64,000 nucleotides of DNA from an uncultured Veillonellaceae bacterium (GCA_958348245.1 CATVYJ010000005.1:13625-77624); one strand, 5' to 3'; shown: positions 1,702 through 61,738, counted from the stretch's first letter. Numbers and translations are program-made. The notes: generated by a model not told the origin, from the sequence alone.

Positions 1702-1713
1702 GGTCCCACCTCC

Positions 1714-2163: not shown

Positions 2164-2185
2164 GGACAGCAAGTCAATCCCTCCT

Positions 2186-3184: not shown

Positions 3185-3906
3185 GGCTGTCCCTTCCTTT
3201 CTGCGAGGTATTCCTCTTCGGAAATGGCGTGGAATTTCACCAGGTCGCCCGCGTGGAGGAGGCTCGGGTCCGGATCGCTGGGACGGAAGAGCTCCACCGG
3301 GGTGCGGCCGATGAGCTGCCAGCCGCCGGGGGTGGAGATGGGATAGCCCCCGGTCTGGCAGCCGGCGATGCCGATGCTCCGCGCGGGGATGGACGTGCGG
3401 GGTGTCTGGCGGCGCGGCGCGGCGATGCGCGGGTCCATGCCGCCCATGTAGGGAAATCCCGGACAGAAGCCGATCATGTACACGAGGTACTGCGGCGCGG
3501 TGTGGAGGCGGATCACGTCGCCCACGGTGAGATGATTGTACTCCGCTACGAAGCCGATGTCCGGGCCGTACTCGCCGCCGTAGCATACGGGGATGTCCAC
3601 CACCCGGGGCGGCGTGGTCTCTCCCGCGCCCGCGGAGGGGATGGCCTCCTCCGTGAGGCGGTCCGACACGAGCTGGAAGGCGGATTTCCCCGAGCGGCCC
3701 CCGCGCTGCTTCACCGTGAAGGGATTGTAGTACACGGCGAGGCTCGTGTAGGAAATGACCGTCTCCACGAGACCGGGGAAGGGATGGGCGTCCAGCTCAT
3801 CCGCGAGGGCTTTTACCGCGTGGTGCACTTCGGGGCTGATGGCGTCGCCGAAGCGGACGAGGAGGCCCGCTTCTCCCAGCGGCAGAATGGTATAGTCGTG
3901 TTTCAC
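3181..3906 (-). CDS. pxpB: 5-oxoprolinase subunit B (KipI / allophanate hydrolase subunit 1 family)
   Basis: 241 aa, MKHDYTILPLGEAGLLVRFGD... with the cyclophilin-like AHS1 domain pattern. Confidence 0.85.
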   Translation of the reverse strand: MKHDYTILPLGEAGLLVRFGDAISPEVHHAVKALADELDAHPFPGLVETVISYTSLAVYYNPFTVKQRGGRSGKSAFQLVSDRLTEEAIPSAGAGETTPPRVVDIPVCYGGEYGPDIGFVAEYNHLTVGDVIRLHTAPQYLVYMIGFCPGFPYMGGMDPRIAAPRRQTPRTSIPARSIGIAGCQTGGYPISTPGGWQLIGRTPVELFRPSDPDPSLLHAGDLVKFHAISEEEYLAERKGQP

Positions 3907-3919
3907 GGGCGTCCCTCCT

Positions 3920-5107
3920 TTACATGAAGAGCTTCGGGAGCTGTTTCATCAGGGTGAGGCCGCCCATGTAGGCGGTCATGGCCACCACCACCGCGCCGAA
4001 GGCGGTCATCCAGAGCGGGTGTTTGTAGTCGCCCACGATGGATTTCTTGTGCGCCGCCACGAGCATCACGAGGAGCGTGATGGGGAGGATGAGGCCGTTC
4101 AGCGTGCCGACGACGATGAGGGTCTTTACCGGCTGGCCGACCACGGCGAAGACGAAGGTGGAGAAAATGATGAAGGCGATGACGAACCAGCGGTAATTCG
4201 CGTCGATCCATTTGTTGAACGTGCGGATGAAGGAAACGGAGGTGTACGCCGCGCCCACCACGGAGGAGATGGCCGCCGCCCACATGACGACGCCGAAGAC
4301 TTTATAGCCCGCGTTGCCCGCGGCGAGACGGAAGACGGACGCCGGAGGATTTGCGCTGTCCAGAGCGAGCCCCGCGCTCACCACGCCGAGGGTGGCGAGG
4401 AAGAGGAGCACGCGCATCACGCCCGTGAGGCACACGCCGGTGACGGCGGAGCGGGAAATTTCCGGCAGGGATTCTTTGCCGGTGATACCCGCGTCGATGA
4501 GGCGGTGTCCGCCGGAGAAGGTGATGTAGCCGCCTACGGTGCCGCCCACGATGGTGACGATGGTCATGGGGTCAATGGTATCGGGGATGATGGTTTTCTC
4601 GATGGCTTCTCCCACGGGCGGCGCGGAGGAAATGGCCACGTAGAGCGTGAGGGCGATCATGACGAAGCCCGCGCCCTGAGTGAATTTATCCATGAGTCGG
4701 CCCGCTTCCTTCACGATGAAGATGGAAATGGCGATGACCGCGCTGATGACCGCGCCGGTCACATTGTCCAGGCCGAAGAGCACATTGAAGCCCATGCCCG
4801 CGCCGGCGATGTTGCCGATATTGAAAGCCAGACCGCCCATGACGATGAGCAGCGCCACGAGGTAGCCCAGTCCGGGGAGGACCATATTCGCCACATCCTG
4901 CCCGCGCTTGCCGGAAATGCCGATGACGCGCCACACGTTGAGCTGCGCCCCGATGTCGAGGATGATGGTGGTGAGGATGACGAAGCCGAAGCTCGCCCGG
5001 AGCTGCTCCGTGAAGACCGTGGTCTGCGTGAGGAAGCCCGGCCCGATGGACGATGTGGCCATGAGAAACGCCGCGCCCAGAAGGACGCTCCAGTCAAATT
5101 TTTTCAT
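3920..5107 (-). CDS. NRAMP-family-like membrane protein (YcsG-like) encoded inside the pxp operon
   Basis: Internal start MKKFDWSVLLGAAFLMATSSIGPGFLTQTT... It is polytopic with a GPGFL motif. The position between pxpA and pxpB matches B. subtilis ycsG. The long upstream extension of the track ORF is rejected. Confidence 0.7.
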   Translation of the reverse strand: MKKFDWSVLLGAAFLMATSSIGPGFLTQTTVFTEQLRASFGFVILTTIILDIGAQLNVWRVIGISGKRGQDVANMVLPGLGYLVALLIVMGGLAFNIGNIAGAGMGFNVLFGLDNVTGAVISAVIAISIFIVKEAGRLMDKFTQGAGFVMIALTLYVAISSAPPVGEAIEKTIIPDTIDPMTIVTIVGGTVGGYITFSGGHRLIDAGITGKESLPEISRSAVTGVCLTGVMRVLLFLATLGVVSAGLALDSANPPASVFRLAAGNAGYKVFGVVMWAAAISSVVGAAYTSVSFIRTFNKWIDANYRWFVIAFIIFSTFVFAVVGQPVKTLIVVGTLNGLILPITLLVMLVAAHKKSIVGDYKHPLWMTAFGAVVVAMTAYMGGLTLMKQLPKLFM

Positions 5108-5154
5108 GGGAAATTCCCCCTCTCTTTTTTGAAATGGTTTGTATGTCAATTCCC

Positions 5155-5919
5155 TTACCGGTCGATAAAGGAAACGATTTCGATGCCTTCTTCCGTGAGG
5201 CGCTCCCGAATGCGGCGGGCGAAGGCGAGCGCTTTCGGGCTGTCCCCGTGAATGCACACCGTGTCCGCCCGGACGGGGATGACTGCGCCCGAGAGAGCCG
5301 TCACCGTGCCGCGCTCCACCATGTCCAGCACCTGCTCGATGGCCGCGTCGTCGTCGGTGATCATCGCCCCGGGCTGCGTGCGCGGCGTGAGCGACCCGTC
5401 GTCCTGATATGTGCGGTCCGCGAAAACTTCGCTCGCCGATGCGAGCCCGATGGCGTCCGCCGCTTCGATGAGGCAGCTCCCTGCAAGGCCGTAGAGGACG
5501 AGCGACGGGTCCTCGTCGTACACTGCGCGGGCGATGGCGTCGGCGAGCGCCCGGTCCTTCGCGGCCATGTTGTACAGCGCGCCGTGAGGCTTCACGTGCT
5601 GGAGCCGGCCTCCCTCCGCGCGGACGAAGGCGGCGAGCGCGCCTACCTGGTAGAGCACGAGGTCGTACGCCTCCTCGGGCTTCGTGGGAATCGTGCGCCG
5701 GCCGAAGCCCGCCAGATCCATCAGCCCCGGATGGGCCCCGACAGCCGCGCCGCGCTCCATGGCGAGCCGCACCGTGCGGTGCATTACGAAGGGGTCGCCC
5801 CCGTGCATGCCGCACGCCACATTCGCCGAGCTCACATATTTCAATACTTCGCTGTCATTGCCGATGGTGTACGCCCCGAAGCTCTCGCCGAGATCGCTGT
5901 TCAGATCGATTCGTTTCAT
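5155..5919 (-). CDS. pxpA: 5-oxoprolinase subunit A (LamB/YcsF family)
   Basis: 254 aa, [43 protein letters not shown]... This is the canonical LamB/YcsF N-terminus. Confidence 0.9.
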
Positions 5920-30039: not shown

Positions 30040-30115
30040 TCCTGAATAGCTCAGTTGGTAGAGCAATCGGCTGTTAACCGATCGGTCGTAGGTTCGAGTC
30101 CTACTTCAGGAGCCA
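30040..30115 (+). tRNA. tRNA-Asn (anticodon GTT)
   Basis: tcctgaatagctcagttggtagagcaatcggctGTTaaccgatcggtcgtaggttcgagtcctacttcaggagcca cloverleaf with a 7-bp acceptor stem and CCA end. Confidence 0.9.
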
Positions 30116-30116
30116 T

Positions 30117-30191
30117 GGCCTGTTCGTCAAGTGGTTAAGACACCGCCCTTTCACGGCGGGTTCGGGGGTTCGAATCCCCCACAGGTCACCA
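30117..30191 (+). tRNA. tRNA-Glu (anticodon TTC)
   Basis: ggcctgttcgtcaagtggttaagacaccgcccttTCacggcgggttcgggggttcgaatcccccacaggtcacca. Confidence 0.85.
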
Positions 30192-30200
30192 TTTTTTTAT

Positions 30201-30276
30201 GGGCGATTAGCTCAGCTGGGAGAGCGCCTGCCTTACAAGCAGGATGTCAGCAGTTCGATCCTGTTATCGCCCACCA
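30201..30276 (+). tRNA. tRNA-Val (anticodon TAC)
   Basis: gggcgattagctcagctgggagagcgcctgcctTACaagcaggatgtcagcagttcgatcctgttatcgcccacca. Confidence 0.9.
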
Positions 30277-44000: not shown

Positions 44001-44579
44001 GTGCATATGATACAGGCGGCAGGACAGGCGCGGACCCGCACGCGGGACATGGTGCTCTTCGGACTGTTTACGGCGCTCACCGCGGTGGGGGCGTTCATCC
44101 GGGTGCCCGTGCCGGTGTGCCCCTTCACGCTGCAGCTGCTCTTCACCACGCTCGCCGGGCTCGTTCTGGGCAGCCGGCGCGGCGCGGCGGCGGTGGCGCT
44201 CTATGTGGCGCTGGGGCTTCTCGGCGTGCCTGTCTTCACCGAAGGAGGCGGGCCGGGCTACATCTTCCAGCCCACCTTCGGCTATCTGGCGGGATTTGTC
44301 GGCGGGGCGTGGCTCACGGGGAAGATCCGCGAAGGCGCGGAGGGGATGCCGTCGCTTTCGCGTCTGCTCTTCGCCGATTTCGCGGGCCTGGCCGTGGTGT
44401 ATCTCTGCGGCATGGCCTACGTGTACGTTCTCTCGAATTATTATCTGGGCACGCCCATCGGCGTCTGGCCGGTGATTCTCTACTGCTTCCTCCTCGCCGT
44501 GCCCGGGGATATCTGCCTGTGCGTGCTCGCGGCGCTTCTCGCGCGGCGGCTCTTCCGGGCGGAAGGCATCCTGCATTGA
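44001..44579 (+). CDS. bioY: biotin transporter BioY (the start may be a downstream in-frame ATG)
   Basis: ...DMVLFGLFTALTAVGAFIRVPVPVCPFTLQLLFTTLAGLVLGSRRGAAAVALYVALGLLGVPVF... Confidence 0.8.
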   Translation: MHMIQAAGQARTRTRDMVLFGLFTALTAVGAFIRVPVPVCPFTLQLLFTTLAGLVLGSRRGAAAVALYVALGLLGVPVFTEGGGPGYIFQPTFGYLAGFVGGAWLTGKIREGAEGMPSLSRLLFADFAGLAVVYLCGMAYVYVLSNYYLGTPIGVWPVILYCFLLAVPGDICLCVLAALLARRLFRAEGILH

Positions 44580-44637
44580 AAGGGGCGCTCCGGCGGGCGC
44601 TCTTTTTCATAGAACAACAAAGAAAGAAGGAATGACC

Positions 44638-45306
44638 ATGGGGAAAGGATTATTCATCACCGGCACCGATACGGACATCGGCAAGACCTACGTGACGGCG
44701 CTGCTCGTGAAGACGCTCCGCAGCGCGGGGTACGACGTGGGCTATTACAAGGCGGCCATCAGCGGGGCGGACTCCGTCGCGGAAAGCGACGCGGGCTTTG
44801 TAAACCGCTTCGCGCATATCGGCGAGCCGGAGGACATGCTCCTCTCGTATCTGTATAAAAACGCCGTGTCGCCCCATCTGGCGGCGCGCATCGAAGGGCA
44901 TCCCGTGGAGAAGGACGTGATTCTCGCGGGATGGCAGCGCGCGGCGGCGAAATATCCCTACGTCACCATGGAGGGGAGCGGCGGCATCTGCTGCCCCATC
45001 CGGCACGACGAGACCGCCGTGTACTACCTGGAGGATATCATCCGCTGGCTGCGCCTGCCCGTGCTCATCGTGGCCGACGCGGGCCTGGGCACCATCAATC
45101 ACGTGGCGCTGACCGCGTTTTATATGAAAGAGCGCGGCCTCACCGCGAAGGGCGTCCTCCTCAATAACTGGAAGGGCGGCCTCATGGAAGAAGACAATGT
45201 GAACATGATCGAGGAAATGACGGGCCTCCCCGTGCTGGCGAAAATCCGCCGGGGCGACACGGCGCTCGACGCGGACCCGGCGCTCCTGGCGTCGCTTTAC
45301 GAATGA
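44638..45306 (+). CDS. bioD: dethiobiotin synthetase
   Basis: MGKGLFITGTDTDIGKTYVTALL (P-loop), 223 aa. The start is the second ATG, after agaaagaagg. Confidence 0.85.
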   Translation: MGKGLFITGTDTDIGKTYVTALLVKTLRSAGYDVGYYKAAISGADSVAESDAGFVNRFAHIGEPEDMLLSYLYKNAVSPHLAARIEGHPVEKDVILAGWQRAAAKYPYVTMEGSGGICCPIRHDETAVYYLEDIIRWLRLPVLIVADAGLGTINHVALTAFYMKERGLTAKGVLLNNWKGGLMEEDNVNMIEEMTGLPVLAKIRRGDTALDADPALLASLYE

Positions 45307-45316
45307 GGAGGACAGC

Positions 45317-46687
45317 ATGGACGAAAAACAGACCTGGCCGGAGATCGACTGGGAAAAAGAGGATGAGAAATATATCTGGCACCCGGCGCAGCAGATGAAG
45401 GACGCGGAAGTCTTTCCGCCGGTGGTGATCGACCACGCGGAGGGGCTCTACCTGTACGACACGAAAGGGAAAGCCTATCTCGACATCATCAGCTCCTGGT
45501 GGTGCAATCTCCTCGGCCACTGCAACCCGGAGATCAACGAAGCCGTCAAGAAGCAGGTGGACGAGCTGGAGCACGTGATCTTCACGAATTTCTCCCACCG
45601 GCCCGCCATCGAGCTCTGCCGCGAGCTCGCGCCGCTCCTGCCGGAAGGGCTGTGCCGGTTCAGCTTCCACGACAACGGGTCTTCCGCGGTGGAAGCGGCC
45701 CTGAAGATGGCCTTCCAGTACCATTACCAGACGGGCCATCCCGAGCGGCAGCGCTTCATGTGCCTCGCCGACTCCTACCACGGCGAGACCATCGGCGCGC
45801 TCTCCGTGGGCGGCATGGACATGTACGCGAAGATTTATCAGCCCATGATGATGCACAACATCCATTTCGACGGGCTCGACTGCTTCCGCTGCCCCTACGG
45901 GAAGACCCGCGATACCTGCGCGTGCGAATGCTTCGAGAGCGCGGAGCAGGCCTTTGAGACATACGGGAAGCAGACCGCCGCGGTCATCGTGGAACCCATC
46001 CTGCAGGGCGCGGCGGGCATGCGCATCTATCCCGCGGAGTACCTCAGGAAACTCAGGAAGCTCTGCGACGCATACGGCGTCCTCCTGATCGACGACGAGA
46101 TCGCCGCGGGCTTCGGCCGCACGGGGAAACTCTTCGCCATCGAACACGCCGGCATCAGCCCGGACATTCTCTGCACCTCCAAAGGGCTCACCGGCGGATA
46201 CCTCCCCATGTCCATCACCATCACTACGGACAGGATTTACAACGCCTTCTACGACGACTACGGCACGCACAAAGCCTTCGTGCACAGCCATACCTACGCG
46301 GGCAATCCCATCGGCTGCGCCGCGGCGCTCGCCGTGCTGCGCATCCTGAAGCGCGACCATATCCTCGAGAAAGCCGCCGAAGTGGGCGTCTATCTCCATG
46401 AGGAGCTGGAGAAGGCCCTCGGCGGCCATCCGAATATGGGCGAGATCCGGCACATCGGCCTCATCAACGCCATGGAGCTCGTGGAAGACCGGAAGACGAA
46501 GAAGCCTTTTGATCCGAAGCGGCGCATCGGCTGGCAGATTTTCCGCCGCGCCATGGCCCGGGGCCTCGTGCTCCGTCCCATGGGGGATGTGATCTATTTC
46601 AACCCGCCTCTCACGCTCGATAAGGAAACGGCGAAGAAGGCGGTGGACCTCTGCCGGGAATCGGTGGAGGATGTGCTCGGAAAGTAA
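45317..46687 (+). CDS. bioA: adenosylmethionine-8-amino-7-oxononanoate aminotransferase
   Basis: 456 aa class-III aminotransferase, ...LLIDDEIAAGFGRTGKLFA... Confidence 0.85.
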   Translation: MDEKQTWPEIDWEKEDEKYIWHPAQQMKDAEVFPPVVIDHAEGLYLYDTKGKAYLDIISSWWCNLLGHCNPEINEAVKKQVDELEHVIFTNFSHRPAIELCRELAPLLPEGLCRFSFHDNGSSAVEAALKMAFQYHYQTGHPERQRFMCLADSYHGETIGALSVGGMDMYAKIYQPMMMHNIHFDGLDCFRCPYGKTRDTCACECFESAEQAFETYGKQTAAVIVEPILQGAAGMRIYPAEYLRKLRKLCDAYGVLLIDDEIAAGFGRTGKLFAIEHAGISPDILCTSKGLTGGYLPMSITITTDRIYNAFYDDYGTHKAFVHSHTYAGNPIGCAAALAVLRILKRDHILEKAAEVGVYLHEELEKALGGHPNMGEIRHIGLINAMELVEDRKTKKPFDPKRRIGWQIFRRAMARGLVLRPMGDVIYFNPPLTLDKETAKKAVDLCRESVEDVLGK

Positions 46688-46964: not shown

Positions 46965-46993
46965 TTGACAGGTAAAGCCGCCTCCCGTACAAT
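46965..46993 (+). promoter_or_regulatory. sigma70 promoter TTGACA-N17-TACAAT driving cassette 1
   Basis: ttgaca ggtaaagccgcctcccg tacaat gaaaac, in an AT-rich 0.5-kb intergenic region. Confidence 0.65.
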
Positions 46994-47030
46994 GAAAACG
47001 TGGTTATTGAGATTACGAAACTCAATCATC

Positions 47031-47070
47031 ATGTATTCTATGGTCAAAAAGGAGGATAGCAGATAAGACC
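47031..47070 (+). promoter_or_regulatory. conserved leader hairpin motif (copy 1) in the roughly 190-nt 5'UTR of cassette 1
   Basis: gtATTCTatGGTCaaAAAGGAGGatagcagataaGACCg. See the copies at 50211 and 58877. Confidence 0.4.
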
Positions 47071-47193
47071 GAAATTTGTAAGTAGTTATAAACTGCATGA
47101 TTTATGATATTGATAGAAAATGACGAGTAATGATTTATAATCATGTAGACTTATAACGAATGTACAAACTCAGTTAGAGGAGGATTTGTTATT

Positions 47194-48357
47194 ATGATGG
47201 ACACTCTGGCTCAGAACAGCCATCTGTTTGATGAACTGTTTCAGGGCGTATACGGCGTCGCGGACATCGGCATCCTGTCCATGTTCGTCATCGGCTTTAT
47301 CCTGATGTTCCTCGCCGTCAGATACGACTATGAACCGATGCTGCTCTTCCCGATGGGCGTCGGCTGTATTCTGGCCAACATCCCCGGTCACTATGCCGTA
47401 CTGCAGGAACCGGGCGCGGAAGGCTTCCTTTTCGTTCTCTACAAAGCAGGCATTGCCAATGAACTTTTCCCGGTCATGATCTTTATCGCCATCGGCGCGA
47501 TGTGCGAATTCAGCCCGCTTATGAGAAAACCCTACGTGATGTTCTTCGCGGCGGCTGCGCAGTTCGGTATCTTCATGACGGCGTTCCTCGCGGCGCTGGT
47601 AGGCTTCCCCTTCAACCAGGCGGCCTCCATCGGCATCATCGGCGCGGCTGACGGCCCGACCACCATTTTCGTCGCTTCCCGTTATGCGCAGGAAATGCTC
47701 GGACCGTTGTCCGTAGCGGCGTACTGCTACATGTCCCTCGTACCGGTCATCCAGCCCCCGATCATCAAGCTGCTCACCACGAAGAAAGAACGCCAGATCC
47801 GCATGCCCTTCACCGGCGACACCCCGGTATCTGACCGCGCTCTCTTCATTTTCCCGCTGATGATCGTCATGGTCGCCGGCATCGTGGCTCCCATGTCCGT
47901 ACCGCTCATCGGCGCCCTCATGTTCGGCAACCTGCTGAAAGTGTCCGGCTGCACGGATCAGCTCGCGAACTGCGCGAAGGATGACCTGTCCAACCTCGTC
48001 ACCCTGTTCCTCGGTCTGGTCGTAGGCTCCACCATGACGGCGGAAAACTTCCTGACCTTCGACGTGTTCAAGATCCTCTGCCTCGGCGCGGTGGCCTTCG
48101 TATTCGATACGGCAGGCGGCGTCCTCTTCGCAAAGATCCTGAACCTCTTCCTCGCGAAGAAGATCAACCCCATGATCGGCGCGTGCGGCATCTCCGCATT
48201 CCCCATGTCCGGCCGTGTTATCGCTAAAATGGCGCTGAAAGACGATCCCACGAACTTCATCGTGCAGGATGCCATCGGCGTCAACGTAGCCGGCCAGATC
48301 GCATCCGTCGTCGCAGGCGGTCTCGTTGTCTGCATGATTCCGATGCTGTCCAAGTAA
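47194..48357 (+). CDS. Na+-translocating decarboxylase beta subunit (OadB/GcdB/MmdB family), paralog A1
   Basis: 387 aa, ...AASIGIIGAADGPTTIFVASRYA...LVPVIQPPIIKLLTTKKERQIRM...FGNLLKVSG...KINPMIGACGISAFPMSGRV... These are the hallmark OadB motifs (compare AAAIGIIGGADGPTAIY, LIQPPIMKALTT..ERKIRM, INPLIGSAGVSAVPMAARV). Confidence 0.8.
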   Translation: MMDTLAQNSHLFDELFQGVYGVADIGILSMFVIGFILMFLAVRYDYEPMLLFPMGVGCILANIPGHYAVLQEPGAEGFLFVLYKAGIANELFPVMIFIAIGAMCEFSPLMRKPYVMFFAAAAQFGIFMTAFLAALVGFPFNQAASIGIIGAADGPTTIFVASRYAQEMLGPLSVAAYCYMSLVPVIQPPIIKLLTTKKERQIRMPFTGDTPVSDRALFIFPLMIVMVAGIVAPMSVPLIGALMFGNLLKVSGCTDQLANCAKDDLSNLVTLFLGLVVGSTMTAENFLTFDVFKILCLGAVAFVFDTAGGVLFAKILNLFLAKKINPMIGACGISAFPMSGRVIAKMALKDDPTNFIVQDAIGVNVAGQIASVVAGGLVVCMIPMLSK

Positions 48358-48372
48358 GGAGGCCTTTCATAC

Positions 48373-48492
48373 ATGGAACCGACAAGTGCAGCTCTTTTCC
48401 AGATGGTGGTCTGCGTACCGCTCATGTTCGTCGTCATCGGCATTTTCGTTCTGCTCACCAAGGGCCTGACGAAACTGTTCCCGGCGAAATAA
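48373..48492 (+). CDS. 39-aa single-TM peptide, OadG (gamma subunit) N-terminal-anchor-like. It is below the ORF-track size cutoff.
   Basis: MEPTSAALFQMVVCVPLMFVVIGIFVLLTKGLTKLFPAK, SD aaggagg 10 nt upstream. Compare the OadG N-terminus ...[41 protein letters not shown]. Confidence 0.6.
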   Translation: MEPTSAALFQMVVCVPLMFVVIGIFVLLTKGLTKLFPAK

Positions 48493-48630
48493 TCCGGCTG
48501 GAATTCTGAAACATTCGGAATGAGGGGGGCCCTCGAAAGCCTTCCGCGTCCCTCAAGGCGCGCTCCCGCCTTTCTTCCGGGAAAGCGCGGGAACACACCT
48601 CTTTTACCTGAAAAGGCGGTGTAAATCCCA
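48493..48630 (+). promoter_or_regulatory. conserved structured intercistronic spacer (nested hairpins + U-rich tail) between the mini-peptide gene and the Dcu gene. It is a candidate attenuator or RNA-processing site.
   Basis: gaggggggccctc, then cgcgcuCCCGccuuucuuCCGGGaaagcgcg, then acacaccucuuuuacc. It is about 95% identical to 51665-51804, more than the flanking coding DNA. Confidence 0.45.
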
Positions 48631-49941
48631 ATGGATATTTCGACTCCCGCTCTTGCCTCCATCATCGTACTGGTGGCAATCGTCGTATTCTCCTGCTTCC
48701 GCGATATCAACGTAGGTATCCTCGGCACGGCAGGGGGCCTTCTGGTCGGCATGATGTTTGCCGGCATGAAAATCAGCGAAGTCTACAAAGGCTGGCCGCT
48801 GTCCCTGTTCATGATCCTCGTGGGCGTTACGTTCATGTTCTCCGCCGCGCAGGTGAACGGCACCATGGAGAAATTCTCCGCGGTGTGCGTCCGTCTCGCC
48901 AAGGGCAACGTGGCTCTCATCCCGATCATTCTCTTCGTTCTCGTGACCTTCATCACCACCATCGGCCCCGGCAACATTGCCTCCACGGCCCTGATGGCTC
49001 CCATGTGCATGGCCATTGCAGGCCGCATCGGCCTCTCCCCGTTCTGCATGACGCTGCTCGTCGTCGGCGCGGCAAACGGCGCGGCCCTGTCTCCTTTCGC
49101 TCCGACCGGCATCATCTCCAACGGCCTCATCGCCCAGTGGGCGCCCCAGGTGGGCATCCCCACGGAGGAACTGTCCGGCATCGCCTGGAAGATTCACTGG
49201 AACTCTGAAATCGTACAGAGCGTCGTCAACTTCGGCGGCTTCTTCCTCACCGGCGGCCTCGCCTGGATGAGCAAGGCCAAGAGCGGCGGCGCGGACTTCG
49301 ACATCGACTCCATCGCTCCGAAGCCGGAACCCTTCGACTGGAAACAGAAGTACACCCTCTTCACGATGCTCGTCCTCGTGTGCGGCGTCATTTTCTTCAA
49401 ACTCGACGTAGGCATGCTCGCCTTCTGCATCGGCACCACCTTCATCCTCTTCAACATCGCGGATGACGGCGAAGCCGTGAAGAAAATGCCCTGGGGCGTC
49501 ATCGTCATGGTCTGCGGCATGTCCGTCCTGATCAACGTCATGGATAAGGCGGGCGGCCTGAACGCCCTCGTCGACATGATCGCCGTCGTATCCAACGGCA
49601 CGACCATCACCGGCGTCGTAGGCTTCATCGCGGGCCTGCTCTCCGCATACTCCAGCTCCTCCGGCGTCATCATGCCCATGTTCCTCAGCATGGTGCCGGG
49701 GCTCCTTGAAGCGGTGAATACCGTCGATGCGGACCACGCGGTCCGTCTGGCATCCGCCATCGACATCGGCGCTCACCTCGTCGATACGTCCCCGCTGTCC
49801 ACGCTGGGCGCGCTGTGCATCGCCAACGCGGTCACCGAAGACAAGGGCATTCTCTTCCGCAATCTGCTCCTGTGGGGGCTCTCCATGTCCGTCGTAGGCG
49901 GCGTCGTCTGCTACGTGGCCTTCGGTCTGCTCGGCCTGTAA
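48631..49941 (+). CDS. Dcu-family (DcuA/DcuB-like) anaerobic C4-dicarboxylate transporter, paralog B1
   Basis: 436 aa polytopic. It matches the DcuA/B N-terminal pattern (IIVLVAIVVFSCFRD.NVGILGTAGGLLVG versus DcuA VELIIVLLAIFLGARLGGIGIGFAGGLGV), a central ...TIGPGNIAS...LSPFAPTG, and the C-terminus. Confidence 0.6.
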   Translation: MDISTPALASIIVLVAIVVFSCFRDINVGILGTAGGLLVGMMFAGMKISEVYKGWPLSLFMILVGVTFMFSAAQVNGTMEKFSAVCVRLAKGNVALIPIILFVLVTFITTIGPGNIASTALMAPMCMAIAGRIGLSPFCMTLLVVGAANGAALSPFAPTGIISNGLIAQWAPQVGIPTEELSGIAWKIHWNSEIVQSVVNFGGFFLTGGLAWMSKAKSGGADFDIDSIAPKPEPFDWKQKYTLFTMLVLVCGVIFFKLDVGMLAFCIGTTFILFNIADDGEAVKKMPWGVIVMVCGMSVLINVMDKAGGLNALVDMIAVVSNGTTITGVVGFIAGLLSAYSSSSGVIMPMFLSMVPGLLEAVNTVDADHAVRLASAIDIGAHLVDTSPLSTLGALCIANAVTEDKGILFRNLLLWGLSMSVVGGVVCYVAFGLLGL

Positions 49942-50146: not shown

Positions 50147-50175
50147 TTGACACCCAAAATGGCAAATCTTACAAT
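50147..50175 (+). promoter_or_regulatory. sigma70 promoter TTGACA-N17-TACAAT driving cassette 2
   Basis: ttgaca cccaaaatggcaaatct tacaat gaaacc. Confidence 0.6.
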
Positions 50176-50210
50176 GAAACCGTACTTATGGGCCACCAGA
50201 CCCGGCGTAC

Positions 50211-50250
50211 GCATTCTATGGTCGAAAAGGAGGGCAGCAGACAAGACCGA
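50211..50250 (+). promoter_or_regulatory. conserved leader hairpin motif (copy 2)
   Basis: gcATTCTatGGTCgaAAAGGAGGgcagcagacaaGACCg. Confidence 0.4.
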
Positions 50251-50371
50251 CAATGGCTGCGCGTTATAAACGCGTCTTTTATGAAGTCGATAGAATTACG
50301 GAAATGTCCTTCATGAAGACGAGAGAAAAATAACGGCGCGCAATATTTTCCTAAGAGGAGGAATTTTTAAC

Positions 50372-51532
50372 ATGGACACTCTGGCTCAGAACAGCGGTCT
50401 GTTTGACGAGCTTTTCCAGGGCATTTACGGACTGGCAGATGTGGGCATCCTCGCGATGTTCGTCGTCGGCTTCATCCTCATGTTCCTCGCCGTCAGATAC
50501 GACTATGAACCGATGCTGCTCTTCCCGATGGGCATCGGCTGCGTTCTTGCAAACATTCCCGGACACTACGCAGTGCTCCAGGATCCCGGAAGCGAAGGCT
50601 TCCTGTACGTTCTCTACAAAGCGGGTATCGCAAACGAACTTTTCCCGGTCATGATCTTTATCGCCATTGGTGCAATGTGCGAATTTGACCCGCTTATGAG
50701 AAAGCCGTTCGTCATGCTCTTCGCAGCAGCGGCTCAGTTCGGTATCTTCATGACTGCGTTCCTCGCGACGCTCCTCGGCTTCCCCTTCAACCAGGCGGCA
50801 GCCATCGGCATCATCGGCGCAGCTGACGGCCCGACCACGATCTTCGTCGCTTCCCGCTATGCGCAGGAAATGCTTGGACCGTTGTCCGTAGCGGCGTACT
50901 GCTACATGTCCCTCGTACCGGTTATTCAGCCTCCGATCATCAAACTGCTCACCACCAAACATGAACGCAAGATCCGTATGCCGTTCACCGGTGAAGCTCC
51001 GGTTTCTGATCGCGCACTCTTCATTTTCCCGCTGATGATCGTCATGGTCGCCGGCGTTGTAGCTCCTATTTCCGTACCGCTCATCGGCGCTCTCATGTTC
51101 GGCAACCTGCTGAAGGTATCCGGCTGCACCGACGACCTGGCAGACTGCGCGAAGGATGACCTGTCCAACCTCGTCACCCTGTTCCTCGGCCTGGTCGTAG
51201 GCTCCACCATGACGGCGGAAAACTTCCTGACCTTCGACGTATTCAAGATCCTCTGCCTCGGCGCGGTCGCATTCGTATTCGATACCGCCGGCGGCGTCAT
51301 CTTCGCGAAGATCGTCAATCTGTTCCTGACCAAGAAGATCAACCCGATGATCGGCGCATGCGGCATCTCCGCATTCCCGATGTCCGGCCGTGTTATCGCC
51401 AAGATGGCGCTGAAAGAAGATCCGACGAACTTCATCGTCCAGGATGCTATCGGCGTCAACGTAGCTGGTCAGATCGCCTCCGTTGTTGCCGGCGGCCTCG
51501 TGCTCTGCATGATCCCGCTGCTGTCTAAATAA
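50372..51532 (+). CDS. Na+-translocating decarboxylase beta subunit (OadB family), paralog A2
   Basis: 386 aa. About 85% identical to A1. From about residue 100 it is identical to A3 in protein and, over more than 600 bp, in DNA. Confidence 0.8.
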   Translation: MDTLAQNSGLFDELFQGIYGLADVGILAMFVVGFILMFLAVRYDYEPMLLFPMGIGCVLANIPGHYAVLQDPGSEGFLYVLYKAGIANELFPVMIFIAIGAMCEFDPLMRKPFVMLFAAAAQFGIFMTAFLATLLGFPFNQAAAIGIIGAADGPTTIFVASRYAQEMLGPLSVAAYCYMSLVPVIQPPIIKLLTTKHERKIRMPFTGEAPVSDRALFIFPLMIVMVAGVVAPISVPLIGALMFGNLLKVSGCTDDLADCAKDDLSNLVTLFLGLVVGSTMTAENFLTFDVFKILCLGAVAFVFDTAGGVIFAKIVNLFLTKKINPMIGACGISAFPMSGRVIAKMALKEDPTNFIVQDAIGVNVAGQIASVVAGGLVLCMIPLLSK

Positions 51533-51544
51533 GGAGGTCTTAGT

Positions 51545-51664
51545 ATGAATCCTGTAAGTGCAGCTCTTTTCCAGATGGTGGTCTGCGTACCGCTCATGTT
51601 CGTCGTTATCGGCGTTTTCGTTCTGCTCACCAAGGGCCTGACGAAAATGTTCCCGGCGAAATAA
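51545..51664 (+). CDS. 39-aa OadG-anchor-like mini-peptide (copy 2)
   Basis: MNPVSAALFQMVVCVPLMFVVIGVFVLLTKGLTKMFPAK, SD aaggagg. Confidence 0.6.
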   Translation: MNPVSAALFQMVVCVPLMFVVIGVFVLLTKGLTKMFPAK

Positions 51665-51804
51665 TCTGGCTGGAATTCTGAAACATTCGGAATGAGGGGG
51701 GCCCTCGAAAGCCTCCCGCGTCCCTCAAGGCGCGCTCCCGCGCTTTCTCACGGGAAGGCGCGGGAACACACCTCTTTTTACCTGAAAAGGTGGTGTAAAT
51801 CCCA

Positions 51805-53118
51805 ATGGATATTTCGACCCCGGCACTTGCCTCCATCATCGTACTGGTGGCAATCGTCCTGTTCTCCTGCTTCCGGGATATCAACGTAGGTATCCTCGGC
51901 ACCGCAGGCGGTCTGATTGTCGGCATGGTATTCTCCGGCATGAAGATCAATGAAGTCTACAAAGGCTGGCCGCTGTCCCTGTTCATGATCCTCGTCGGCG
52001 TAACGTTCATGTTCTCCGCCGCACAGGTTAACGGCACGATGGAGAAATTCTCCGCGATCTGCGTACGTCTTGCGAAAGCAAACATCCGCCTGATTCCGTT
52101 CATTCTGTTCTTCCTCGTGACCTTCATCACGACCATCGGCCCCGGCAACATCGCAACCACCGCTCTGATGGCTCCGATGTGCATGGCCATTGCAGGCCGT
52201 ATCGGCCTCTCCCCGTTCTGCATGACGCTGCTCGTAGTCGGCGCGGCAAACGGCGCGGCCTTCTCTCCTTTCGCTCCGACCGGCATCATTTCCAACGGCA
52301 TCATCGCCAGCTGGGCTCCGCAGGTCGGCATTCCTCAGGAAGCTCTTTCCGGTCTCGGCTGGAAGATTCACTGGAACTCTGAAATCGCTCAGGGCGTCGT
52401 CAACTTCGGCGGCTTCTTCCTGACCGGCGGCCTTGCCTGGATGGGCAAAGCCAAAGGCGGCGCGGACTTCGACATCGATTCCATCGCTCCGAAGCCGGAC
52501 GCATTTGACTGGAAGCAGAAGTACACCCTCTTCACGATGGTCGTACTGGTTGTAGGCGTTATCGCCTTCCACCTGGACGTAGGCATGCTTTCCTTCGTTA
52601 TCGGCACGACCTACATCCTCTTCAACATTGCTGACGACGGCGAAGCCGTAAAGAAAATGCCCTGGGGCGTCATCGTCATGGTCTGCGGTATGTCTGTCCT
52701 GATCAACGTCATGGATAAGGCAGGCGGCCTGAACGCTCTCATCGACATGATCGCCATCGTGTCCAACGGCACGACCATCAACGGCGTGGTCGGCTTCATC
52801 GCAGGTCTGATTTCCGCATACTCCAGCTCCTCCGGCGTTGTCATGCCGATGTTCCTGAACATGGTTCCCGGCCTGCTGCAGGCTGTGGGCACCTTTGATG
52901 CAGATCATGCGGTTCGTCTCGCATCCTCCATCAATATCGGCGCTCACCTCGTAGATACCTCCCCGCTGTCCACCCTCGGCGCGCTCTGCATTGCAAACGC
53001 GGCTGTAGACGACAAGGCGAAGGGCGTACTCTTCCGGAACCTCCTGTTCTGGGGTCTGTCCATGTCCGTCGTAGGCGCAGTGGTCTGCTACGTATTCTTC
53101 GGTCTGCTCGGCCTGTAA
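51805..53118 (+). CDS. Dcu-family C4-dicarboxylate transporter, paralog B2
   Basis: 437 aa, MDISTPALASIIVLVAIVLFSCFRDINVGILGTAGGLIVG... About 95% identical to B4, with 100% DNA-identical tracts. Confidence 0.6.
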   Translation: MDISTPALASIIVLVAIVLFSCFRDINVGILGTAGGLIVGMVFSGMKINEVYKGWPLSLFMILVGVTFMFSAAQVNGTMEKFSAICVRLAKANIRLIPFILFFLVTFITTIGPGNIATTALMAPMCMAIAGRIGLSPFCMTLLVVGAANGAAFSPFAPTGIISNGIIASWAPQVGIPQEALSGLGWKIHWNSEIAQGVVNFGGFFLTGGLAWMGKAKGGADFDIDSIAPKPDAFDWKQKYTLFTMVVLVVGVIAFHLDVGMLSFVIGTTYILFNIADDGEAVKKMPWGVIVMVCGMSVLINVMDKAGGLNALIDMIAIVSNGTTINGVVGFIAGLISAYSSSSGVVMPMFLNMVPGLLQAVGTFDADHAVRLASSINIGAHLVDTSPLSTLGALCIANAAVDDKAKGVLFRNLLFWGLSMSVVGAVVCYVFFGLLGL

Positions 53119-53595: not shown

Positions 53596-53774
53596 AGGCG
53601 GGCAATGCCCAAAACCGGCCAGTGTACCGTATGATACACACCGGAAAAGAAGACGGGCGAGCGGCGCAGTTTACAGATCTCATTCCTATTTTTCTTCCGC
53701 GCGCTCCCGCCTCGGGCAGGCAGCCGGTTCAGGCAGGGGACATCCCCGCCATTTCTCACGACGGACTCCGCATG

Positions 53775-53800
53775 GGCGGGCCCGCTTTCTTTTCAAGGTG
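53775..53800 (+). promoter_or_regulatory. hairpin + U-tract (attenuator-like) just upstream of the B3 RBS
   Basis: catgggcgggcccgctttcttttcaagg, then ggtggtgtaaag RBS. Confidence 0.4.
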
Positions 53801-53813
53801 GTGTAAAGTTTTA

Positions 53814-55127
53814 ATGGAAATTTCAACCCCGGCTCTTGCCTCCATCATCGTACTGGTGGCAATCGTCCTGTTTTCCTGCTTCCGGGATATCAACGTAGGT
53901 ATCCTCGGCACGGCAGGCGGTCTGCTGGTGGGCATGCTCTTCTCGGGCATGAAAATCAGCGAAGTCTACGAGGGCTGGCCTCTCAGCCTCTTCATGATCC
54001 TCGTGGGCGTGACGTTCATGTTCTCCTGCGCGCAGGTGAACGGCACCATGGAAAAATTCTCCGCGGTGTGCGTCCGTCTGGCCAAGGCGAATGTGGCGCT
54101 CATTCCGATCATCATGTTCCTGCTGACCACGTTCATCGTGACCATCGGCCCCGGCAACATTGCGGGCACGGCGCTCCTCGCGCCGGTCGCCATGGCGATC
54201 GCCGGCCGTATCGGCCTCTCCCCGTTCTGCATGACGCTGCTCGTGGTCGGCGCGGCAAACGGCGCGGCTTTCTCTCCTTTCGCACCGACGGGCATCATCT
54301 CCAACGGCATCATCGCCGGCTGGGCTCCGCAGGTAGGCATTCCGGCGGATCAGCTGGACAGCCTGGCCTGGAAAGTGCATTTCAACTCTGAAATCGCGCA
54401 GGGCATCGTCAACTTCGGCGGCTTCTTCCTCACGGGCGGCGCGGCATGGATGATGCGCGCCCGCAAAGACGCGAGCTTCGACATCGACTCCATCGCTCCG
54501 AAGCCGGGCGCTTTCGACTGGAAGCAGAAGTACACCCTTCTCACCATGGTCGTTCTCGTGGTGGGCGTCATTTTCTTCAAACTTGACGTAGGCATGCTCT
54601 CCTTCATCATCGGCACCACCTACATTCTCTTCAACATCGCCGACGACGGCGAAGCCGTGAAGAAAATGCCCTGGGGCGTCATCGTCATGGTCTGCGGTAT
54701 GTCTGTCCTGATCAACGTCATGGACCAGGCGGGCGGCCTGAACGCGCTCGTCCAGATGATCGCCGTCGTATCGAACGACACCACCGTGACCGGCGTGGTG
54801 GGCTTCATCTCCGGCCTCATCTCCGCGTACTCCAGCTCCTCCGGCGTCGTCATGCCCATGTTCCTCAACATGGTGCCCGGCCTGCTCGAAGCAGTGGGCA
54901 CGGTGGACGCGGACCATGCGATCCGTCTCGCTTCTTCCATCAACATCGGCTCCCACCTGGTGGATACGTCTCCGCTGTCCACGCTGGGCGCGCTCTGCAT
55001 CGCGAACGCCGCTGTAGACGACAAGGCGAAGGGCATCCTCTTCCGGAATCTGCTCTTCTGGGGCCTCTCCATGTCCATCGTGGGCGGCTTCGTGTGCTAC
55101 GTCGCATTCGGCCTGCTCGGCCTCTGA
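53814..55127 (+). CDS. Dcu-family C4-dicarboxylate transporter, paralog B3 (solitary, with no OadB partner)
   Basis: 437 aa, MEISTPALASIIVLVAIVLFSCFRDINVGILGTAGGLLVG... Internal start; the upstream part of the 501-aa track ORF is leader. Confidence 0.6.
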   Translation: MEISTPALASIIVLVAIVLFSCFRDINVGILGTAGGLLVGMLFSGMKISEVYEGWPLSLFMILVGVTFMFSCAQVNGTMEKFSAVCVRLAKANVALIPIIMFLLTTFIVTIGPGNIAGTALLAPVAMAIAGRIGLSPFCMTLLVVGAANGAAFSPFAPTGIISNGIIAGWAPQVGIPADQLDSLAWKVHFNSEIAQGIVNFGGFFLTGGAAWMMRARKDASFDIDSIAPKPGAFDWKQKYTLLTMVVLVVGVIFFKLDVGMLSFIIGTTYILFNIADDGEAVKKMPWGVIVMVCGMSVLINVMDQAGGLNALVQMIAVVSNDTTVTGVVGFISGLISAYSSSSGVVMPMFLNMVPGLLEAVGTVDADHAIRLASSINIGSHLVDTSPLSTLGALCIANAAVDDKAKGILFRNLLFWGLSMSIVGGFVCYVAFGLLGL

Positions 55128-58806: not shown

Positions 58807-58835
58807 TTGACGAAGAAAAGTTTAGCGATTAGAAT
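58807..58835 (+). promoter_or_regulatory. sigma70 promoter TTGACG-N17-TAGAAT driving cassette 4
   Basis: ttgacg aagaaaagtttagcgat tagaat, in an AT-rich 0.4-kb intergenic region. Confidence 0.6.
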
Positions 58836-58876
58836 CGAGGCATGACAGGGTGTACGGACCCCGTACGCCCCGCCGC

Positions 58877-58916
58877 ATTCTCAGCCGGAAAGGAGGACAG
58901 TGGGTCAGGCTGGAAT
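58877..58916 (+). promoter_or_regulatory. conserved leader hairpin motif (copy 3, with compensatory stem change)
   Basis: gcATTCTcAGCCggAAAGGAGGacagtgggtcaGGCTgg. The stem AGCC/GGCT replaces GGTC/GACC of copies 1 and 2. Confidence 0.4.
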
Positions 58917-59033
58917 TTCATCCCGGGCGCTCCGGCGGAACCCATCAATCCAAAACTTGCAAAATCACAAATCCTGTTTCCGCAGGGGAAGAGGGGATGA
59001 AAGAAATATCTTTCTTCATAAGGAGGACTTATC

Positions 59034-60194
59034 ATGGATATGTTGGCACAGAATAGCCAGCTGTTTGACGAGCTTTTCCAGGGCGTGTACGGACTGGCCG
59101 ACGTCGGCGTGCTGTCGATGTTTGTCGTAGGCTTCATCCTCATGTTCCTCGCCGTCAAATACGATTATGAACCGGTCCTGCTGTTCCCGATGGGCATCGG
59201 ATGCATTCTTGCAAACATCCCGGGCCATTACGCAGTACTCCAGGATCCCGGAAGCGAAGGCTTCCTGTATGTGCTTTATCAGGCGGGTGTCGCAAACGAA
59301 CTTTTCCCGGTCATGATTTTTATCGCCATTGGTGCAATGTGCGAATTTGACCCGCTGATGAGAAAGCCTTTCGTCATGCTCTTCGCAGCAGCCGCTCAGT
59401 TTGGTATCTTCATGACCGCGTTCCTCGCGACGCTCCTCGGCTTCCCCTTCAACCAGGCGGCGGCTATCGGCATCATCGGCGCGGCTGACGGCCCGACCAC
59501 GATCTTCGTCGCTTCCCGCTATGCGCAGGAAATGCTTGGACCGTTGTCCGTAGCGGCGTACTGCTACATGTCCCTCGTACCGGTTATTCAGCCTCCGATC
59601 ATCAAACTGCTCACCACCAAACATGAACGCAAGATCCGTATGCCGTTCACCGGTGAAGCTCCGGTTTCTGATCGCGCACTCTTCATTTTCCCGCTGATGA
59701 TCGTCATGGTCGCCGGCGTTGTAGCTCCTATTTCCGTACCGCTCATCGGCGCTCTCATGTTCGGCAACCTGCTGAAGGTATCCGGCTGCACCGACGACCT
59801 GGCAGACTGCGCGAAGGATGACCTGTCCAACCTCGTCACCCTGTTCCTCGGCCTGGTCGTAGGCTCCACCATGACGGCGGAAAACTTCCTGACCTTCGAC
59901 GTATTCAAGATCCTCTGCCTCGGCGCGGTCGCATTCGTATTCGATACCGCCGGCGGCGTCATCTTCGCGAAGATCGTCAATCTGTTCCTGACCAAGAAGA
60001 TCAACCCGATGATCGGCGCATGCGGCATCTCCGCATTCCCGATGTCCGGCCGTGTTATCGCCAAGATGGCGCTGAAAGAAGATCCGACGAACTTCATCGT
60101 CCAGGATGCTATCGGCGTCAACGTAGCTGGTCAGATCGCATCGGTCGTTGCAGGCGGCCTCGTCCTCTGCATGATCCCGATGCTTATGCAGTGA
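59034..60194 (+). CDS. Na+-translocating decarboxylase beta subunit (OadB family), paralog A3
   Basis: 386 aa, MDMLAQNSQLFDELFQGVYGLADVGVLSMFVVGFILMFLAVKYDYEP... The 3' two-thirds are identical to A2. Confidence 0.8.
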   Translation: MDMLAQNSQLFDELFQGVYGLADVGVLSMFVVGFILMFLAVKYDYEPVLLFPMGIGCILANIPGHYAVLQDPGSEGFLYVLYQAGVANELFPVMIFIAIGAMCEFDPLMRKPFVMLFAAAAQFGIFMTAFLATLLGFPFNQAAAIGIIGAADGPTTIFVASRYAQEMLGPLSVAAYCYMSLVPVIQPPIIKLLTTKHERKIRMPFTGEAPVSDRALFIFPLMIVMVAGVVAPISVPLIGALMFGNLLKVSGCTDDLADCAKDDLSNLVTLFLGLVVGSTMTAENFLTFDVFKILCLGAVAFVFDTAGGVIFAKIVNLFLTKKINPMIGACGISAFPMSGRVIAKMALKEDPTNFIVQDAIGVNVAGQIASVVAGGLVLCMIPMLMQ

Positions 60195-60209: not shown

Positions 60210-60329
60210 ATGAATCCAGTAGCAGCATCCCTTTTCCAGATGGTGGTATGCGTACCGCTGATGTTCCTGGTCATCCTCATTTTCGTGGGTCTCACGAAGC
60301 TCCTCACGAAGATGTTCCCCGCAGAATAA
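60210..60329 (+). CDS. 39-aa OadG-anchor-like mini-peptide (copy 3)
   Basis: MNPVAASLFQMVVCVPLMFLVILIFVGLTKLLTKMFPAE, SD ggaggg. Confidence 0.6.
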   Translation: MNPVAASLFQMVVCVPLMFLVILIFVGLTKLLTKMFPAE

Positions 60330-60424
60330 TTCTGCCCGATCCTTTATTTTCCACATAAAGGCGTGCCCCCGTATCCGCGAGGGTGCGGGGACCCACCTCT
60401 TCCATGCAAAGGTGGTGTAAACCA

Positions 60425-61738
60425 ATGGATATTTCGACCCCGGCTCTTGCCTCCATCATCGTACTGGTGGCAATCGTCCTGTTCTCCTGCTTCCGGGACT
60501 GCAACGTAGGTATTCTCGGCACGGCAGGGGGCCTTCTGGTCGGCATGGTCTTCGCAGGCATGAAGATCAGCGCTGTCTACAAAGGCTGGCCGCTGTCTCT
60601 GTTCATGATCCTCGTCGGCGTAACGTTCATGTTCTCCGCCGCACAGGTCAACGGCACGATGGAAAAATTCTCGGCTGTGTGCGTACGTCTTGCGAAAGCA
60701 AACATTCGCCTGATTCCGTTCATTCTGTTCTTCCTCGTGACCTTCATTACGACCATCGGCCCCGGCAACATCGCTTCCACCGCTCTGATGGCTCCGATGT
60801 GCATGGCTATCGCTGGCCGTATCGGCCTCTCCCCGTTCTGCATGACGCTGCTCGTAGTCGGCGCGGCAAACGGCGCGGCCTTCTCTCCTTTCGCTCCGAC
60901 CGGCATCATTTCCAACGGCATCATCGCCAGCTGGGCTCCGCAGGTCGGCATTCCTCAGGAAGCTCTTTCCGGTCTCGGCTGGAAGATTCACTGGAACTCT
61001 GAAATCGCTCAGGGCGTCGTCAACTTCGGCGGCTTCTTCCTCACCGGCGGCCTTGCCTGGATGGCAAAGGCCAAAGGCGGCGCGGACTTCGACATCGATT
61101 CCATCGCTCCGAAGCCGGAACCCTTCGACTGGAAGCAGAAATACACCCTGCTCTCCATGGTCGTCCTGGTAGTAGGCGTTATTTTCTTCAAACTCGACGT
61201 AGGCATGCTCTCCTTCTGCATCGGCACCACGTACATCCTCTTCAACATTGCGGATGACGGCGATGCAGTGAAGAAAATGCCCTGGGGCGTCATCACCATG
61301 GTCTGCGGTATGTCTGTCCTGATCAACGTCATGGACGAGGCAGGCGGCCTGAACGCTCTCGTTGATATGATCGCTGTCGTTTCCAACGGCACGACCGTCA
61401 ACGGCGTGGTCGGCTTCATCGCAGGTCTGATTTCCGCATACTCCAGCTCCTCCGGCGTTGTCATGCCGATGTTCCTGAACATGGTTCCCGGCCTGCTGCA
61501 GGCTGTGGGCACCTTTGATGCAGATCATGCGGTTCGTCTCGCATCCTCCATCAATATCGGCGCTCACCTCGTAGATACCTCCCCGCTGTCCACCCTCGGC
61601 GCGCTCTGCATTGCAAACGCGGCTGTAGACGACAAGGCGAAGGGCGTCCTCTTCAGAAACCTCCTCTTCTGGGGCCTGTCCATGTCCATTGTCGGCGCAG
61701 TGGTCTGCTATGTCTTCTTCGGTCTCCTCGGACTGTAA
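60425..61738 (+). CDS. Dcu-family C4-dicarboxylate transporter, paralog B4
   Basis: 437 aa, MDISTPALASIIVLVAIVLFSCFRDCNVGILGTAGGLLVG... Internal start after aaaggtggtgtaaacca. Confidence 0.6.
   Translation: MDISTPALASIIVLVAIVLFSCFRDCNVGILGTAGGLLVGMVFAGMKISAVYKGWPLSLFMILVGVTFMFSAAQVNGTMEKFSAVCVRLAKANIRLIPFILFFLVTFITTIGPGNIASTALMAPMCMAIAGRIGLSPFCMTLLVVGAANGAAFSPFAPTGIISNGIIASWAPQVGIPQEALSGLGWKIHWNSEIAQGVVNFGGFFLTGGLAWMAKAKGGADFDIDSIAPKPEPFDWKQKYTLLSMVVLVVGVIFFKLDVGMLSFCIGTTYILFNIADDGDAVKKMPWGVITMVCGMSVLINVMDEAGGLNALVDMIAVVSNGTTVNGVVGFIAGLISAYSSSSGVVMPMFLNMVPGLLQAVGTFDADHAVRLASSINIGAHLVDTSPLSTLGALCIANAAVDDKAKGVLFRNLLFWGLSMSIVGAVVCYVFFGLLGL

Follow-up and report, generated by a model that had tools for sequence, protein, structure and literature searches.

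A stretch of 64,000 nucleotides from an uncultured Veillonellaceae bacterium (GCA_958348245.1 CATVYJ010000005.1:13625-77624; the whole of it is here called the window) carries three genes for OadB-type beta subunits, each followed by an open reading frame (ORF) of only 120 nucleotides. Are these ORFs real genes and, if so, what might a 39-residue peptide do beside a beta subunit? In the Na+-translocating decarboxylases, the gamma or delta subunit is usually described as both the membrane anchor and the recruiter of the catalytic head. An earlier note on this DNA had taken the peptides for gamma stubs, able to bind beta and unable to recruit alpha, and had read the absence of an alpha gene as a hint that these beta subunits work in a non-canonical complex. 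Judged from sequence, all three ORFs are real genes under selection, and each encodes a single-pass membrane peptide linked to OadB. With a probability of about two in three, we propose that this peptide sits on beta as an anchor-only subunit of a methylmalonyl-CoA-type Na+ pump, is co-translated with OadB and stabilises it, in a cassette that couples the pump to the uptake of a dicarboxylate, probably succinate.

Three small genes behind three OadB paralogues

The OadB paralogues are encoded on the plus strand at 47194-48357 (387 aa), 50372-51532 (386 aa) and 59034-60194 (386 aa). All three match PF03977 (E ~1e-137; 5e-137 for the first) and TIGR01109 (~381 bits; 380 bits for the first), and they are homologous to chain A of 6IVA (E 4.5e-83); the nearest named matches of OadB1 come from Dialister, Acidaminococcus and Phascolarctobacterium at 70-72% identity. 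On the same strand follow the 39-codon ORFs, namely copy 1 at 48373-48492, which encodes the single-helix peptide MEPTSAALFQMVVCVPLMFVVIGIFVLLTKGLTKLFPAK, copy 2 at 51545-51664, a recent duplicate of copy 1, and copy 3 at 60210-60329, a divergent paralogue. The consensus of the three peptides is MxPxxAxLFQMVVCVPLMFxVIxxFVxLTKxLTKxFPA(K/E), and a tryptic peptide of the product is MEPTSAALFQMVVCVPLMFVVIGIFVLLTK. In all three copies the mini-ORF starts 12-15 nt beyond the OadB stop codon, with an AGGAGG or GGAGGG box 7-10 nt 5' of its ATG; in copy 1 this AGGAGG box (48357-48362) overlaps the stop codon of OadB1. Stop-codon read-through from OadB into the peptide, for which the frames agree in each window copy, was considered and rejected, since at a related locus (L006) the two are out of frame.

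The earlier note was accurate as to the position of the ORFs, the peptides they encode, their strong Shine-Dalgarno sequences and the OadB gene upstream of each. The downstream genes, which it had called Dcu, are carriers of the MatC_N/CitMHS family, encoded on the plus strand at 48631-49941 (a dicarboxylate carrier, probably for succinate), 51805-53118 and 60383-61738. The ORFs were unannotated only in the gene track from which that note was made: NCBI, ENA, JGI and Logan gene calls include the same 39-aa proteins, as 'hypothetical protein' wherever a name exists, and a protein identical to copy 1 is called as a gene on ~30 public contigs.

It had further been argued that the peptides are better conserved than DNA drift requires. 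Copies 1 and 2 are nearly identical in DNA (dS 0.07; six nonsynonymous and two synonymous differences), so that this pair offers no independent evidence, and the argument is carried by copy 3, which differs from the other two at a dS of 0.67-0.78 with a dN/dS of 0.20-0.32. Comparison with orthologous loci (Nei-Gojobori, 12 copies) gave a dN/dS of 0.05-0.3 at a dS of 0.7-2, with 0.10-0.18 for copy 1; the frame is therefore under purifying selection and coding, and the amino-acid-level conservation that the earlier note had named as its test extends to related genomes.

Homologues were sought with the 39-aa peptide plus one upstream codon as query. A profile of the three window copies turned up 26 clusters of proteins of 39 aa among public gene calls. 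Six loci were found in 185,579 species genomes, some of them in metagenome-assembled genomes (MAGs) that carry the label Veillonellales or Veillonellaceae, the rest in two further MAG bins; five of the six show OadB, peptide and MatC in this order, and the sixth leaves its contig shortly after the peptide gene. Among 1.84 billion representative proteins, HMMER returned 19 matches at E <=1e-3, nearly all of 39-50 aa, the longer ones being miscalled tails or fusions. A scripted survey then covered 112 peptide genes at 100 loci, ~90 of which came from look-ups and a metagenome scan, with 46 distinct peptides; OadB lies directly upstream of the peptide gene in 106 of 106 informative cases. Together with the 26 clusters and the low dN/dS, this linkage makes a pattern far beyond chance.

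The wider family consists of single-helix peptides of 39-57 aa. Residues P16, F19, F25, T29 and L32 are invariant in the HMMER family; the regular expression used to collect loci itself demanded P16, F19, F25 and T29, and the HMMER matches, which are independent of it, give the same invariant positions. Along the helix, conservation shows a sharp maximum at 100 degrees per residue, which points to a single conserved helix face. A hydrophobic stretch (residues 7-29) precedes K30, K34 and K39, and the Lys-rich C-terminus is accordingly predicted, by the positive-inside rule only, to lie in the cytoplasm, with the N-terminus outside.

Between each peptide gene and its MatC gene lies a GC-rich, structured intergenic RNA (48493-48630, 51665-51804 and 60330-60400, plus strand; folding z -2.2, -4.6 and -2.5). 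Having no clean T-run, it is not a classic terminator, and it may set the ratio of OadB and peptide to MatC expression or stabilise the mRNA. These hairpins would suit a regulatory leader peptide, the product of which is functionless and the translation of which controls the structured RNA and thereby MatC expression. Against such a role, selection acts at the amino-acid level amid many synonymous changes, the invariant residues all fall on one helix face, and the family persists where neither MatC nor a hairpin follows; we find it scarcely credible.

Each cassette is also preceded by a leader of ~200 nt (about 46965-47193, 50147-50371 and 58807-59033). A sigma-70-like promoter, TTGACA-17-TACAAT, can be recognised on the plus strand at 46965-46993 for cassette 1, with equivalent promoter-like sites, TTGACA-17-TA(C/G)AAT, at 50147-50175 and 58807-58835 for cassettes 2 and 3, all of them consensus matches only. 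Common to the three leaders is a conserved, Shine-Dalgarno-like AAAGGAGG block, which precedes the actual ribosome-binding site by ~100-150 nt and is, from the alignment alone, apparently flanked by complementary bases. An Rfam search of the window returned only three tRNAs, clustered at 30040-30273 on the plus strand, and no riboswitch or other family in the cassette leaders.

The carriers invite a different assignment, in which the peptide would serve the MatC-type carrier as a small subunit or link OadB with MatC. MatC follows within 700 nt (<=700 nt) of the peptide gene in 75 of 84 informative cases, and the nearest curated family, NF040909, is named for a 'small transporter subunit'. However, nine of the 84 have no MatC downstream, set against the invariable OadB upstream; the extra MatC-type carrier of the window (53622-55127, plus strand, likely start ~53812) has neither an OadB nor a peptide gene of its own; and many operons hold two or three MatC copies per peptide. 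Loci with OadB and peptide and without MatC are L011-L013, L014, L084 and L100. An assignment to MatC is in our judgement quite improbable, and we return to the peptide as a partner of beta.

Likeness to the anchor of OadG

A partner of beta of this size has a structural precedent. In the cryo-EM structure of the Salmonella beta3-gamma3 complex, the ordered part of gamma is confined to residues 2-43, which contact beta at T4, T6 and T10, and the C-terminal tail of gamma points into the cytoplasm (PMC7274780). Deletion of gamma residues 61-84 leaves beta binding intact, and alpha no longer co-purifies (PMC7274780). With the ordered segment on beta and the tail dispensable, a 39-aa, helix-only peptide would be enough, in principle, for beta binding.

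The earlier note had likened the peptide to the N-terminal part of OadG, and in size, predicted topology and F-P motif the comparison is apt. Like OadG (PF04277, TIGR01195; 6IVA/6IWW chain B), the peptide has one N-terminal helix, a C-terminus predicted to be cytoplasmic and a juxtamembrane basic residue followed by F-P; at ~40 residues it is about as long as the OadG part ordered on beta, and its gene, too, adjoins the beta gene. The linker and the alpha-binding domain are missing, as had been stated: only two residues follow the F-P motif of the peptide, with neither the Ala/Pro linker nor the alpha-binding amphipathic helix of OadG. It differs also in gene order, following the beta gene whereas OadG precedes it, and in having a conserved ALP-x-MF motif in place of the GMG-x-V of OadG.

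Homology in sequence, by contrast, found no support. PF04277 gave no match at E up to 10 in 20 members of the peptide family, no TIGRFAM match was obtained, a Pfam scan of these 20 returned only chance-level matches to unrelated membrane families, and a PDB sequence search with the peptide profile retrieved nothing. Alignment to OadG-type N-termini, which had been proposed as a check, fared no better: hhalign of the family against Salmonella OadG (a reference sequence identical to 6IVA chain B) and Dialister anchors gave probabilities of 2-3%, and the peptide-family HMM scored -2.9 bits on Salmonella OadG 1-47 and 1.3 and -2.6 bits on the Dialister anchors, within the range of shuffled controls (1000 shuffles each). 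With no similarity above these controls, the resemblance to OadG rests on architecture and context.

Profile libraries provide some fainter signals. The best and most consistent match of the family is to NF040909, 'OadG-related small transporter subunit', which resembles it in size (37 model positions against 39 aa) and single-helix design. The match spans model positions 9-37 of 37 and appears below threshold in 15 of 20 close members and in several distant ones (E 3e-4 to 1e-2); all peptide scores fall below the curated cut-off of 25, the best being 20.3 bits (E 3.4e-4). Weak matches, consistent in register, were also obtained to the N-terminal parts of OadG (PRK03814, positions 4-44 of 86, best E 0.04-0.13) and of MmdD (positions 7-43 of 112, E about 0.1), and no peptide matches the MmdE model (NF047904). 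The peptide and the OadG anchor may share a common descent. Our search of the literature on OadG-related small subunits and MmdE brought up nothing directly relevant. MmdD and MmdE of Veillonella parvula (NF047902, NF047904) are comparable as small accessory subunits of the same kind of enzyme system; MmdD, however, unites anchor and soluble part in one chain, and here the two are mostly separate proteins.

A parallel arrangement was observed in Dialister sp. CP181256.1 (L100, 1-7834), where tandem cassettes combine a DASS carrier, a 42-aa peptide and a 374-aa classical OadB; two full units are present, and a third OadB is represented by its end at the locus edge. As in the window, OadB paralogues and a dicarboxylate carrier have genes for short helix-only peptides next to them. 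The Dialister peptides differ in matching PF04277 and the MmdD N-terminus (E 1e-10), in preceding an OadB only 44% identical to that of the window, in following a DASS rather than a MatC carrier and in bearing no detectable similarity to the window family. Anchor-only subunits associated with transporter cassettes therefore arose more than once.

Complete operons and detached cassettes

Where the surveyed sequence reaches far enough upstream, the missing catalytic partners often come into view. An MmdA-type carboxyltransferase is encoded upstream in 34 of 68 informative cases and a biotin carrier in 36 of 68, and about half of the loci with sufficient upstream sequence are full methylmalonyl-CoA decarboxylase operons. 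Their order is MmdA, a small protein of 86-120 aa, a Biotin_lipoyl carrier, OadB and the peptide, followed in most by one to three MatC genes and in some by a family-III CoA-transferase. Such operons occur in L014, L033-L080 (an abundant human-gut type), L081, L084 and L093; the carboxyltransferase of L033 scores 931 bits on the mmdA model TIGR01117. Beta and peptide genes form a constant pair in a distinct OadB subtype of 383-389 aa, full-operon members of which are 68-71% identical to the window OadB.

The surroundings of the module vary. Relatives with 83-84% identical OadB have three OadB-peptide-MatC cassettes behind a gene for a LysR-type regulator. In related loci MatC homologues sit between the mmd genes and the family-III CoA-transferase, a type of gene often found after MatC (for example L010 2874-4094), with best NCBIfam matches of oxalate, succinate and glutarate type, all sub-threshold; in one public gene call (P0050, 80 aa) the peptide is continuous with the N-terminus of a family-III CoA-transferase. 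At L015 (1-6302), cobalamin biosynthesis and transport genes lie directly upstream of an OadB-peptide-MatC unit, a placement that fits the B12-dependent methylmalonyl-CoA mutase pathway.

What became of the alpha-binding part can be seen in the full operons. In every one but L084, the small protein (86-105 aa; L033 7867-8172, L093 3242-3508, L081 7934-8251 and similar) has no N-terminal membrane helix. Its sub-threshold matches cover only C-terminal positions of the OadG models (PF04277 30-75 of 76, TIGR01195 30-82 of 84), positions 40-108 of 112 of MmdD and 17-53 of 57 of MmdE; the separate 86-120-aa proteins of related operons match MmdE (NF047904) at E 2e-3 to 2e-17. With the peptide matching the N-terminal and the small protein the C-terminal model positions, helix and alpha-binding part are usually separate products, which fits an anchor-only peptide. 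L084 encodes a 120-aa delta-like protein with a membrane helix of its own, and the peptide as well, so that the peptide is not always the sole anchor.

Most of the soluble delta/epsilon-like proteins, that of L014 excepted, begin with MGF(F/L)(G/D)(L/S)LFG and a run of Lys. Full-operon peptides usually have acidic tails (EED up to EEEEDED), and those of the window and their closest relatives, in detached cassettes, end FPA(K/E/Q) with no acidic tail. Other cassette-type peptides have a very short tail at most (for example KDND), and the tail of the L084 peptide (…FPEKDA) is no more acidic than these. The pairing of an acidic tail with a Lys-run protein suggests an electrostatic tether, or else the Lys-rich start may be a membrane-binding amphipathic segment.

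These observations bear on the alpha-less, non-canonical membrane complex of the earlier note, for instance a stand-alone Na+/H+ conductance or a modulator of MatC. Given the frequency of MmdA and biotin carrier genes beside homologous peptides, its central argument is weak, because an alpha gene missing in cis does not show that the complex is alpha-less. The idea nevertheless draws on several facts. Neither alpha nor a biotin carrier is within reach in any of ~30 informative detached beta-peptide(-MatC) cassettes, of the window clade and of distant relatives alike; the window peptides are without the acidic tail seen beside polybasic soluble delta-like proteins, and the correlation of tail-less peptides with detached cassettes leaves some room for a beta untethered from alpha. 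The beta genes number three in the window, and their products carry a substitution at the position of N311, a residue essential in Salmonella OAD: all three have Asp there (D263 in copy 1), as against Asn in eight aligned relatives, none from the window's own clade.

The residues of the Na+ site and those critical for the fold are kept. In Salmonella numbering, the window OadBs retain E40, D203, Y229, N373, G377, S382, N412 and S419, so that the Na+-site residues D203, S382 and N412 are intact along with E40. R258 and R304 are absent from the whole 383-389-aa subtype, full-operon members included; the classical-type 374-aa OadB of Dialister retains both, and N311 too. The lack of R304, like the Asp at N311, weighs against the reading we prefer. 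The same subtype and peptide family occur in complete mmdA-mmdC operons, and the only known substrate of the OadB family is carboxybiotin, as is well established (PMC7274780).

Nor is the window itself silent on biotin. Immediately upstream of cassette 1 lie plus-strand genes for biotin uptake and synthesis, BioY, BioD and BioA (44001-46687), so that biotin supply genes adjoin those of a pump expected to consume carboxybiotin. No MmdA or MmdC homologue is found within the 64-kb window, and in an MmdA profile search no match came from the window's genome contig among the best 120 of ~8000. The sole biotinyl protein of the window (1714-2208, minus strand) sits in a minus-strand cluster (346-5919) with a biotin carboxylase (346-1701), CT_A_B (2186-3586), CT_C_D (3181-3906), an ORF with an Nramp-like region in its C-terminal half (3920-5815) and LamB/YcsF (5155-5919); the Nramp-like ORF overlaps that of LamB/YcsF, which makes its boundaries provisional. 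This cluster looks like a PxpABC/KipI-KipA-type enzyme, which assigns the biotinyl protein to a different, ATP-dependent system. Base composition varies along the window: G+C drops abruptly between 8-12 kb (0.68-0.70) and 12-14 kb (0.52), and the OadB/MatC cassettes, at 0.53-0.60, lie under the mean of 0.62.

Dialister offers an analogy for where alpha may be. Representative genomes of that genus are reported to contain a canonical succinate-to-propionate cluster (PMC11441152), and the one examined here (L100) has extra beta cassettes; by this analogy alpha is probably encoded elsewhere in the genome of the window's organism. Taking these points together, we regard an alpha-less complex as unlikely. 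A more elaborate idea, doubtful as it is, would treat the detached cassettes as interchangeable membrane modules (OadB trimer, peptide and MatC succinate carrier) that share one soluble head of MmdA, MmdC and the delta-like protein rather than staying tethered to it, the peptide replacing a split or lost gamma/delta tether.

A proposed anchor separated from its head

Our preferred reading, a beta-bound anchor in a methylmalonyl-CoA-type pump, starts from what was directly observed: coding ORFs, strict OadB linkage, helical periodicity and homologues in complete operons. On this reading, the mini-ORF would be translated, probably by coupling to the adjoining upstream OadB gene. The conserved face of the helix (P16, F19, V21/I22, F25, T29, L32 and F36-P37) would pack on the peptide's own OadB-type beta subunit, and the peptide would anchor and stabilise beta, a task that falls to the N-terminal helix of OadG or MmdD in the classical Na+-translocating decarboxylases. 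This OadB subtype would be part of the methylmalonyl-CoA decarboxylase systems that Negativicutes-like bacteria of the gut possess, and most of these operons would make the alpha-binding part of gamma/delta as a separate soluble protein. In the window, the beta-peptide pair would have acquired a MatC-type dicarboxylate carrier gene, probably one for succinate, and the resulting cassette would have multiplied to three, each with a putative promoter; genes for the carboxyltransferase, the biotin carrier and the soluble delta/epsilon-like protein presumably lie elsewhere in the genome.

Some of this was known already, namely OadG-related small subunits (NF040909) and anchor-only, MmdD-like peptides that match Pfam. 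What appears to lie outside current models is threefold: this family of peptides, the strictness with which it pairs with a distinct OadB subtype, and the split delta subunit with amplified beta-peptide-carrier cassettes. In a beta subtype widespread among Negativicutes-like bacteria of the gut, then, anchoring and head recruitment are usually encoded separately, and the membrane part of ~40 aa is missed by current Pfam and NCBIfam models. The pair can separate from the enzyme, join the gene for a dicarboxylate carrier and be amplified. In practical terms, the family should improve small-protein annotation, and it offers a defined target for structural work on the assembly of methylmalonyl-CoA decarboxylase.

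The most useful lead concerns succinate. A 2024 study found that the presence of mmdA is no predictor of extracellular succinate consumption by gut bacteria, few mmdA-positive genera of which consume external succinate (PMC11441152). The OadB-peptide-MatC cassettes are a candidate, and testable, basis for this capacity. If they are indeed interchangeable modules that share one soluble head, their amplification would raise the capacity for extracellular succinate uptake and decarboxylation, and could explain why few mmdA-positive gut genera use external succinate.
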